Below, in pieces: positions 32,089 through 32,826 of a stretch of 64,000 nucleotides of DNA. This DNA comes from an uncultured Chloroflexia bacterium. Lineage in GTDB: Bacteria; Chloroflexota; Limnocylindria; QHBO01. Below the pieces are notes generated by a model that had not been told where the DNA came from, made no database searches, and saw nothing but the letters and a program-made list of their open reading frames with translations. The translations under genes were made by a program, and so were the position numbers. Position 1 is the first letter of the stretch; each line of letters opens with the position of its first letter. The stretch covers positions 16 through 64,015 of the forward strand of contig CAWJIR010000011.1 in the NCBI GenBank assembly GCA_963843015.1. Direction: 5' to 3'.

Positions 32089-32133
32089 TGTGATTATAGG
32101 AAGCCGATGTCGGACCCCGACCCGAGCCGCCCC
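32089..32133 (+). repeat. copy A of the duplicated sigma-factor promoter/5' end (TGTGATTATAGGAAGCCGATGTCGGACCCCGACCCGAGCCGCCC)
   Basis: Matches 32783..32826 with 2 mismatches, with weaker similarity for ~10 nt more. It encodes only a 12-codon remnant (MSDPDPSRPGRA*). Confidence 0.85.
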
Positions 32134-32225
32134 GGCCGCGCGTAGCCGGGCGCGGACTCAAGAACAGCGCCTAAGATCGATCGGTCACGGGGGTGGACAG
32201 TCCAAGCCCACGGAGGAGGTGCCCC

Positions 32226-32723
32226 TTGCGTCGCGCGTTTGCCCTACTCGCGATCCCAGGCCTGATGTTCAGTTTGGTGGCGGCCCCGGTCGCGGCCGCC
32301 ACCACCTACCAGGCGGTCATCCATGAAGACTTTGGGCGCCGAGCGTCATCCGAGCCCTGCACGTTTGACGAGCCAACTGAGGTTTTCACCTGCCCGGGTT
32401 GGGGAACGGTGCGGGGTTATGGGCGGGTGACCTCCAGCGTCGCCTTCGATTTCATCAATGAAACAACCACACGCACCCTGACCTTTGGCGATGGCAGCAC
32501 GCTGGTGCTTGCCGAGGTGTGGGACGGCTTCTTCAATCCGGGCAACTCTCACAACGCTCCGGGCCAAATGGTCAGCTGGGGCAATCCAGGCTTCGACTCC
32601 GGTGTATGGGAAGTCATCGAGGGGAGTGGCCAGTTCGCGAATGCCAGCGGGAGCGGCACGAGCCAGAACGTTCAGGCCGGCGACACGGTTGTTCTCAAGT
32701 TCGTCGGCGACATCACTTTGTAG
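32226..32723 (+). CDS. secreted hypothetical protein
   Basis: GGAGGAGG lies 6 nt before TTG-32226 (in frame with track ORF 32193..32723). The signal peptide is LRRAFALLAIPGLMFSLVAAPVAAA. The mature part is beta-rich. Confidence 0.6.
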   Translation: MRRAFALLAIPGLMFSLVAAPVAAATTYQAVIHEDFGRRASSEPCTFDEPTEVFTCPGWGTVRGYGRVTSSVAFDFINETTTRTLTFGDGSTLVLAEVWDGFFNPGNSHNAPGQMVSWGNPGFDSGVWEVIEGSGQFANASGSGTSQNVQAGDTVVLKFVGDITL

Positions 32724-32782
32724 CGCCTGCCCAGTCCAATCGGTTCATCGGGGTTCGAACGCCGCGTCCTCGGCCGCGGGGA

Positions 32783-32826
32783 TGTGATCATACGAAGCCG
32801 ATGTCGGACCCCGACCCGAGCCGCCC
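32783..32826 (+). repeat. copy B of the duplicated segment (native sigma-factor promoter and first 9 codons)
   Basis: See 32089..32133. TGTGATCAT resembles an extended -10 lying 9 nt before ATG-32801. Confidence 0.85.

Follow-up and report, generated by a model that had tools for sequence, protein, structure and literature searches.

Why does the start of an ECF sigma factor gene occur twice at this locus, once in front of the gene itself and once beside a tRNA gene, with a gene for a secreted protein enclosed between the two copies? The arrangement lies in the window (the whole stretch of 64,000 nt of DNA analysed here), and an initial annotation had set two answers side by side: the repeats could flank an inserted or duplicated cassette, or they could wire the secreted protein to the promoter of the sigma gene. 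The resident genes and the two copies of the repeat are arranged as follows.

31992 to 32078, minus strand: tRNA-Leu(CAA), called by ARAGORN, the sole tRNA-Leu(CAA) in the assembly
32082 to 32132, no strand assigned: repeat copy A, on the tRNA side, with the complete ancestral spacer and sigma codons 1–9, ATTATAG intact
32107 to 32145, plus strand: 12-codon remnant of the sigma 5' end, MSDPDPSRPGRA followed by a stop, with the ancestral AGGAAG and ATG unchanged
32776 to 32826, no strand assigned: repeat copy B, on the sigma side, with two derived substitutions (32789 T>C and 32793 G>C) within the ATTATAG block
32801 to 33412, plus strand: ECF sigma factor gene, intact, 84–90% identity to same-genus orthologues
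33436 to 34011, plus strand: presumed anti-sigma ORF with an HxxxCxxC motif and one hydrophobic segment; two overlapping frames over 33423–33512

The identity of the sigma gene is clear from its protein, which matches PF04542 (56.1 bits), PF08281 (54.6 bits) and TIGR02937 (86.3 bits against a cut-off of 42.9). Sigma-70 regions 2 and 4 are the only ones present, with a score above the family threshold, which places the protein among the ECF (group 4) sigma factors. Its start, the ATG at 32801, lies within copy B, and the same ATG in copy A opens a frame that stops after 12 codons. This start codon is supported, as the first codons are conserved with synonymous-type changes and the same ATG is found in all relatives. 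The downstream ORF (33436–34011) matches no family model and is presumed to encode the anti-sigma factor from its position and motif.

A repeat search returned a direct repeat of 51 nt, 32082–32132 and 32776–32826, with 47 of 51 positions identical and 694 nt from start to start. The last 33 nt of the repeat, GAAGCCGATGTCGGACCCCGACCCGAGCCGCCC, are exact between the copies. With up to three mismatches allowed, this 33-mer core occurs twice in the window, against no occurrence in 100 dinucleotide-preserving shuffles, and it is found exactly twice in the whole 1.93-Mb assembly. The four mismatches between copy A and copy B fall at 32084/32778, 32088/32782, 32095/32789 (T/C) and 32099/32793 (G/C). 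The direct repeat reported in the initial annotation is thus real, with a left edge 7 nt further out than had been given: the annotated start at 32089 is 11 nt from the 5' end of tRNA-Leu, and the 51-nt repeat begins 4 nt away from it. The two mismatches counted at the time are the T/C and G/C pairs. A weaker similarity, said to continue for about 10 nt more, did not hold up, since anchored extension scored against random 40-mers of the window gave p ~0.11 on the right and ~0.46 on the left. A gapped alignment gave a repeat of 71–75 nt; this longer version was dropped because the anchored extension scores were not significant, and 51 nt were kept. All other landmarks are placed as annotated, namely the 12-codon remnant, TAAGATCGATCGGTCA (32172–32187), GGAGGAGG (32211–32218), the 165-aa ORF (32226–32723) and the sigma ATG.

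Comparison with relatives reveals an empty site. We searched the sigma protein in 40 related genomes and retrieved 19 orthologous loci, 14 from the same genus and 5 from five other genera of the family. At every one of these loci, the sigma ATG is immediately preceded by tRNA-Leu(CAA) on the other strand (one locus is truncated inside the tRNA, with the 5' half of the tRNA visible). The spacer between the tRNA and the sigma ATG is 27–29 nt long in 17 of the 19 loci; in the remaining two, which come from two other genera, it measures 43 and 60 nt. The repeated sequence is single-copy in all 19 relatives, and tblastn detected no homologue of the secreted protein at the 19 orthologous loci. A family-wide BLAST search, in which copy B and the next 34 nt served as query against 176 genomes, found two genuine copies of the repeat in one genome only, that of the window; the site is empty in the 175 others. 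Apparent second copies in two relatives (G006 and G011) were discarded, being contig ends that overlap by 141 and 127 nt at the tRNA, i.e., assembler k-mer overlaps. The check that had been proposed with the inserted-cassette alternative, a look at the locus in relatives, consequently came out in its favour: tRNA next to sigma, one copy of the repeat and no secreted gene, 19 times out of 19. Because the site is empty in all 19 relatives and two genuine copies occur only here, parsimony suggests a lineage-specific addition of 694 bp, made up of 643 nt of new DNA (32133–32775) and a second copy of the 51 nt.

Careful inspection of the duplicated stretch suggests that it carries start signals for both neighbours, centred on one block.

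32089 to 32098, no strand assigned: shared -10 block of copy A, with TATAAT on the minus strand (32098 to 32093) and TGtGATTAT on the plus strand (32089–32097); putative promoter

On the minus strand, a perfect TATAAT faces the tRNA at 14 nt from the mature 5' end. This distance is the expected place for a tRNA promoter with a short leader processed by RNase P. On the plus strand, TGtGATTAT has the form of an extended -10 element with A at position 2 and T at position 6, and it ends 9 nt before the sigma ATG; the sigma mRNA would consequently be leaderless or very short-leadered. The initial annotation had described a near-leaderless, TGn-extended -10-like promoter, which is a fair reading of the sequence, and it had overlooked that, on the opposite strand, the same A/T block offers the tRNA a perfect TATAAT. 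The two opposed hexamers, GATTAT (32092–32097, plus) and TATAAT (32098–32093, minus), stand one base out of register, which pairs position 2 of each with position 6 of the other. Such hexamers with paired positions 2 and 6 form the commonest class of bidirectional promoters, with starts ~18 bp apart (Warman et al.; bioRxiv 10.1101/2020.01.31.928960), and the pairing that defines this 18-bp class is present in the block. A consensus scan of the locus for a two-hexamer sigma-70 promoter returned none, and the assignments rest on the -10 elements and their conservation. We note that the window's genome uses TA[AG][AG]AT hexamers 6–8 nt before start codons.

Conservation of the block follows the same logic. 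The 7 nt ATTATAG are invariant in 19 of 19 relatives, within the window's genus and in others; they are kept in copy A and have two changes in copy B, where the plus strand still gives TGtGATCAT and the minus strand TATGAT. The ancestral spacer was in all likelihood one shared bidirectional promoter. Both copy B substitutions are permitted by the minimal TAnnnT rule on either strand, and would show relaxed constraint rather than loss of function. As ATTATAG is preserved in copy A, which would serve the tRNA, and has drifted in copy B, which would serve sigma only, the comparison points to the strong tRNA promoter as the probable source of the constraint seen in relatives.

The DNA between the two copies is of a different character.

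32133 to 32775, plus strand: insert of 643 nt with one gene; GC 63.6% against 70.25% for the genome
32211 to 32218, plus strand: Shine-Dalgarno sequence GGAGGAGG, 7 nt before the TTG start
32226 to 32723, plus strand: cargo gene for a 165-aa secreted protein with a TTG start and an N-terminal signal peptide

The third codon positions deviate in the same direction as the overall composition, with a GC3 of 75% in the cargo ORF against 90% in sigma. No other copy of the insert was found in the genome, including its 93-nt leader and 52-nt trailer, and the repeat search found no terminal inverted repeats at its ends. Transposase, integrase or other mobility genes are absent from the insert, whose only gene is the cargo ORF. 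When folded as RNA, the leader, the trailer and the region upstream of the tRNA give structures no more stable than those of shuffled sequences. The TTG start of the cargo gene is backed by an alignment with homologues that begin with MRR.

Neither Pfam nor NCBIfam has a model that matches the cargo protein. Modelled with AlphaFold on the family alignment, the protein is all-beta with a mean pLDDT of 81, and its best PDB matches, which are weak (E 1.6e-3, TM 0.40–0.49), are plant dirigent proteins and allene oxide cyclases (AOC); we tentatively regard the predicted fold as a dirigent/AOC-like barrel. The family is a small one of ~165-aa proteins from soil metagenomes, with 24 cluster representatives. 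Its distribution is patchy: of 150 other genomes from the window's family, two have a homologue, with 46–47% identity and located elsewhere in the genome, and further homologues occur in three MAGs titled Chloroflexota, Chloroflexia and Solirubrobacterales. Neither a sigma gene nor tRNA-Leu was found near the cargo homologues at any of ~40 loci. The deviant GC and GC3 and the patchy protein family show the insert to be, on composition and distribution, foreign in origin.

Four features are directly observed: the two copies of the repeat, an empty site in the relatives, an insert of foreign composition, and a lack of mobility genes. We read the locus as an insertion of 643 nt of foreign DNA with a 51-nt target duplication of the shared tRNA/sigma promoter, and we give this reading a probability of about 0.8. 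The ancestor would have carried tRNA-Leu(CAA) and sigma head to head, 27–29 nt apart, with one A/T-rich bidirectional block between them. Into this spacer, 643 nt of foreign DNA with one secreted-protein gene would have entered, and 51 nt, which begin 4 nt away from the tRNA and reach as far as sigma codon 9, would have come to flank the insert on both sides. The duplicated block would thus extend over approximately -46 to +5 of the predicted tRNA start and would also hold the sigma promoter, the AGGAAG and the first nine sigma codons. On this reading the 28-nt spacer is filled by two overlapping promoters, and a plain insertion would therefore part one of the two genes from its promoter. Duplication of the whole shared promoter would let both tRNA and sigma keep their start signals, with (I) the tRNA promoter kept in copy A, and (II) the sigma promoter, ribosome-binding region and start codon kept in copy B. 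Afterwards, each copy would have served one direction, copy A remaining the same as the ancestral block and copy B gaining two changes. As to the joining itself, our preferred candidates are repair of a break by the host, or an illegitimate joining in which a long stagger was filled in. A microhomology between sigma codons 3–6 (GACCCCGACCCG) and the 3' end of a riboswitch aptamer that precedes homologues of the cargo gene (GAACCCGACCCG) was considered as the joining site and dropped: the junction lies 8 nt away, and a 9-nt match is expected by chance in approximately 1 of 20 such comparisons (a rough estimate).

A further question is whether the newcomer makes use of the promoter copy that now precedes it. 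Promoter capture is compatible with the insertion; it holds that the rightward promoter of copy A drives the remnant ORF and the secreted gene, and contributes materially to expression of the latter. In copy A the TGtGATTAT, AGGAAG and ATG are unchanged, so that a complete sigma upstream region is aimed at the new gene, and the insert begins only 93 nt before the cargo start codon. No terminator is predicted between copy A and the cargo gene, nor between the cargo gene and sigma. In addition, the cargo leader is devoid of the c-di-GMP-II-GCG riboswitch usual in its closest homologues. The RF03170 aptamer for this riboswitch precedes the five closest full-length homologues (L027, L028, L033, L034 and L038; 49–59% identical), where it scores 55.6–64.7 bits against a gathering score of 47.9 and ends 15–20 nt before the start codon. 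In the window, RF03170 is absent from 32079–32300 even at E up to 10, and the idea of a riboswitch remnant in the leader was dropped on this ground. As there is no trace of the aptamer in the leader, the cargo gene apparently arrived, or was left, without the usual control region of its family. The same leader, however, contains a candidate promoter of its own.

32172 to 32187, plus strand: TAAGAT, a -10-like hexamer, followed by CGATCGGTCA, the whole reading TAAGATCGATCGGTCA; 48 nt before the cargo start; putative promoter element

This box (TAAGAT and CG(ATCG)GTCA, with the strong Shine-Dalgarno sequence following in the 93-nt leader) is a 4-nt-longer variant of TA[AG][AG]ATCGGTC, a motif that occurs 3 times in the window against 0.06 expected and 5 times in the genome, where uvrB and uvrC are among the five genes that it precedes. 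That the TAAGAT box is the cargo gene's own promoter is plausible. An ECF-type promoter reading of the leader (GAAC-N16-CGGTC) was set aside, since the genome-wide counts are dominated by hits in coding sequence and are uninformative. Moreover, the preservation of copy A is fully explained by the need of the tRNA for its promoter. On balance we regard a material contribution of copy A to expression of the secreted gene as possible and rather unlikely. If it were true, the new gene would share the expression of sigma, which might in turn also be reached by read-through from the new gene. As in other cases of promoter capture, or of a promoter duplicated when a gene was inserted, the newcomer is without its usual leader and is faced by a full copy of a resident promoter region; the difference is that the insert here has a promoter-like box of its own.

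A more far-reaching version combines this capture with specialisation of the two copies: the bidirectional promoter would have been split into a copy for the tRNA (A) and a copy for sigma (B), with the secreted gene, which an orphan c-di-GMP-II-GCG riboswitch gates in other organisms, placed under the rightward arm of copy A and co-expressed with the sigma/anti-sigma pair. We hold this to be less probable than capture as such, and doubtful overall. If true, the locus would be a natural and datable case of promoter subfunctionalisation, together with regulatory rewiring by an insertion with long target duplication.

The tRNA next to copy A raises the alternative that the repeats are attL and attR of a site-specific integration, and that the element has either decayed to one gene or persists as a cis-mobilisable remnant. 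This tRNA-Leu is in fact an integration hot spot on its other side.

28180 to 28209, no strand assigned: exact 30-nt copy of the tRNA-Leu 3' end (2 matches, 0 expected), the far boundary of an integrase-less islet on the 3' side of the tRNA

The sequence past the tRNA-Leu 3' end differs in each relative, and the stretch 28180–32078, with its 30-nt tRNA repeat, is a true att-type example at the same tRNA. The initial annotation had spoken of rearrangement scars on both sides of this tRNA, and the exact copy of the tRNA 3' end bears this out. A homologue of the cargo family is moreover the single gene of an att-type islet at a tRNA-Ser in another organism (L061), bounded by a 61-nt exact repeat that starts in the anticodon loop and extends to the 3' end, and att identity blocks span a size range that includes 51 bp. 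The locus thereby resembles tRNA-linked att islands and islets in that it adjoins a tRNA, has direct repeats of tens of bp, carries foreign accessory cargo and has no integrase. It differs from them in the placement and content of the repeat. Integrases that target tRNA genes duplicate the 3' part of the tRNA gene (PMC2853133), whereas the repeat here contains no tRNA sequence: it starts 4 nt outside the tRNA 5' end, on the promoter side, runs away from the tRNA and includes the first codons of the neighbouring gene. An integrase or other recombination gene is absent, the insert measures only 643 nt, and the site is empty in 175 of 175 other genomes of the family, so there is no repeated use of it. 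We therefore consider an att-type origin improbable.

Somewhat more improbable still is a history that began with the tandem duplication of a segment starting at the spacer, after which most of the first copy, with a second sigma gene in it, gave way to foreign DNA by replacement or deletion, and nine codons were left behind. The remnant ORF is indeed a truncated sigma 5' end, and such a pathway has been discussed for repeat-insert-repeat patterns in rRNA operons (PMC3457768). It would require at least two events whose breakpoints happen to leave only 51 nt, though, and nothing in the insert resembles sigma, the anti-sigma ORF or any other part of the genome; the intermediate is seen in no relative.

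One further sequence bears on the insertion from outside the window's assembly. The closest homologue of the cargo protein, with 87% identity over the last 75% of the protein, is encoded on a 788-nt contig (L026) from another sample, ERZ28582870. The DNA of this contig aligns with the window at 82% over 444 nt, in a match that starts at codon 43 of the gene, passes the stop codon and the 3' flank and takes in the first 14 nt of copy B. The contig ends with ...GGGGGTGTGATC within copy B and carries the copy-B C (32789) instead of the ancestral GATT. Because this match reaches into copy B, the junction between the insert and copy B is, as judged from the alignment, present in a second organism. 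The part of L026 ahead of codon 43 is unrelated to the window, so that the left 218 nt of the insert are not shared, and this 5' part has no match in 41 related genomes. The N-terminus of the window's cargo protein is family-typical in the alignment, which suggests that L026 is the rearranged or chimeric sequence of the two. Unless L026 is chimeric, the insert would have had a more complex history than one event. The left junction, from copy A into the insert, is documented by the window's assembly alone. An expanded repeat or chimeric join in what is, after all, a 64%-complete MAG in 13 contigs is highly improbable, given that the copies differ at 4 of 51 positions, unlike a mis-expanded repeat, that the intervening 643 nt encode an intact member of a real protein family, and that the insert/copy-B junction and the copy-B C recur in the independent contig L026.

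We thus return to the insertion of foreign DNA with duplication of its target, and to the systems it can be compared with. The ancestral block is similar to bidirectional promoters of the type described by Warman et al. (bioRxiv 10.1101/2020.01.31.928960; PMC12825309) in having opposed -10 elements offset by one base and predicted starts ~18 bp apart. It is distinct from them in two respects: (I) one arm would serve a tRNA and the other the leaderless or near-leaderless mRNA of an ECF sigma factor, and (II) the two arms of the putative promoter have been split into two copies by duplication. The pair of copies thereby provides a natural experiment on ATTATAG, which is invariant while serving both genes and drifts in the copy that serves sigma only. 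The locus also illustrates how a gene can enter a spacer that is, in all likelihood, fully occupied by overlapping promoters, with both neighbours surviving.

Among known events, this one comes nearest to 'insertion with long target duplication' (Nobusato et al. 2000, Gene 259:99; Furuta et al. 2010, NAR). Kobayashi's group, which coined the term, has described such insertions with repeats of 46 to ~420 bp, which often span a start or stop codon and leave the target gene intact (Furuta et al. 2010, PMC2853133). The defining features recur at the present locus: flanking direct repeats that align to one single-copy sequence at the relatives' empty site; a repeat above 30 bp that is unique in the genome (51 nt, two copies in 1.93 Mb); and an insert below 20 kb with neither mobile-element genes nor terminal inverted repeats (643 nt, one ORF). 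A restriction-modification (RM) system as cargo was a criterion of the Furuta screen, not of the rearrangement, and the cargo here is a secreted all-beta protein. This pattern has likewise been discussed where short non-RM DNA lies in rRNA operons, the alternative there being a tandem duplication plus recombination (PMC3457768).

Like the insertions of Furuta et al. and Nobusato et al., then, the present one has long unique repeats, an empty site, no transposase or integrase, a deviant GC content and a repeat that lies over a translation start. It is distinct in its cargo, as theirs consists of RM genes and ours of a small secreted protein without a nuclease. Insertions with long target duplication are known almost only from RM genes, which has led to the idea that the cargo nuclease makes them; Furuta et al. 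suspect double-strand breaks by the RM cargo itself (PMC2853133). As the cargo here is without a nuclease, such breaks cannot explain this case. A clean case with a single, harmless cargo gene, from an uncultured high-GC soil lineage, argues for a general outcome of host repair. The second distinction is that the whole putative bidirectional tRNA/sigma promoter was duplicated, such that two genes would have been rescued and not one. In sum, the event cleanly exemplifies a kind of insertion that is known, though seldom described, and does not amount to a new mechanism; it leaves current understanding unchanged, and it is of use as a tidy example and as annotation. What is distinctive about it are the duplication of a whole, probably bidirectional tRNA/sigma promoter and a cargo gene that is without the riboswitch of its family.

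The small gene family of the secreted cargo protein (window 32226-32723, +) moves in very small islets linked to tRNA genes, and does so in two or more unrelated settings, as seen from a metagenome contig (Ga0070699_100453809, 1-1162) that encodes a homologue 32% identical to the cargo protein. This homologue is the sole gene between a tRNA-Ser and a partial copy of it, and the locus is an att-type islet that holds one gene and lacks an integrase:

23-112, tRNA-Ser(GGA)
1100-1160, exact 61-nt repeat of the tRNA-Ser(GGA) part running from the anticodon loop to the 3' end

In the window, the tRNA-Leu 3' end is itself repeated on the opposite side of the tRNA from the insert, where an exact 30-nt repeat (28180-28209 and 31992-32021) delimits 3.8 kb of DNA whose GC content (67.7%) is somewhat reduced. 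The sequence immediately past the tRNA-Leu 3' end is different in each relative examined, which marks this side as a classical integration hot spot.

Among the homologues, the one most similar to the cargo gene (contig L026) lacks the signal peptide typical of the family. Its 5' third (1-351) is unrelated to the window's cargo gene, carries a different upstream ORF ending at position 78, and has no match among 41 related genomes. Either that organism has undergone a rearrangement within the gene, or the contig is a chimera produced by short-read assembly.

Downstream of the ECF sigma gene, the presumed anti-sigma gene, whose product matches no family model, has no clean start (33413-33520). 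Two overlapping frames (33423-33512 and 33436-34011) span its beginning, suggesting a frameshift or sequencing indel. The motif TA[AG][AG]ATCGGTC occurs three times in the window (0.06 expected) and five times in the whole genome, preceding uvrB, uvrC, an HD-domain gene and others:

39045-39055, 46176-46186 and 49799-49809, window
C10:131735 and C12:164184, same assembly, outside the window
32172-32186, a 4-nt-longer variant in the insert

In three cases the start codon lies 6-8 nt past the hexamer, as in the leaderless type. The conserved CGGTC follows the -10 hexamer.

Five cargo-protein homologues are each directly preceded by an RF03170 c-di-GMP-II-GCG riboswitch aptamer (55.6-64.7 bits; gathering score 47.9):

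L027, 20-105
L028, 261-348
L033, 544-629
L034, 305-391
L038, 843-928

Unlike these five, the cargo gene of the window has no RF03170 aptamer. To our knowledge, the ligand of the c-di-GMP-II-GCG variant class has not been established; with these five loci, the variant gains a recurrent downstream gene, encoding a small secreted protein with a predicted dirigent/AOC-like beta-barrel.
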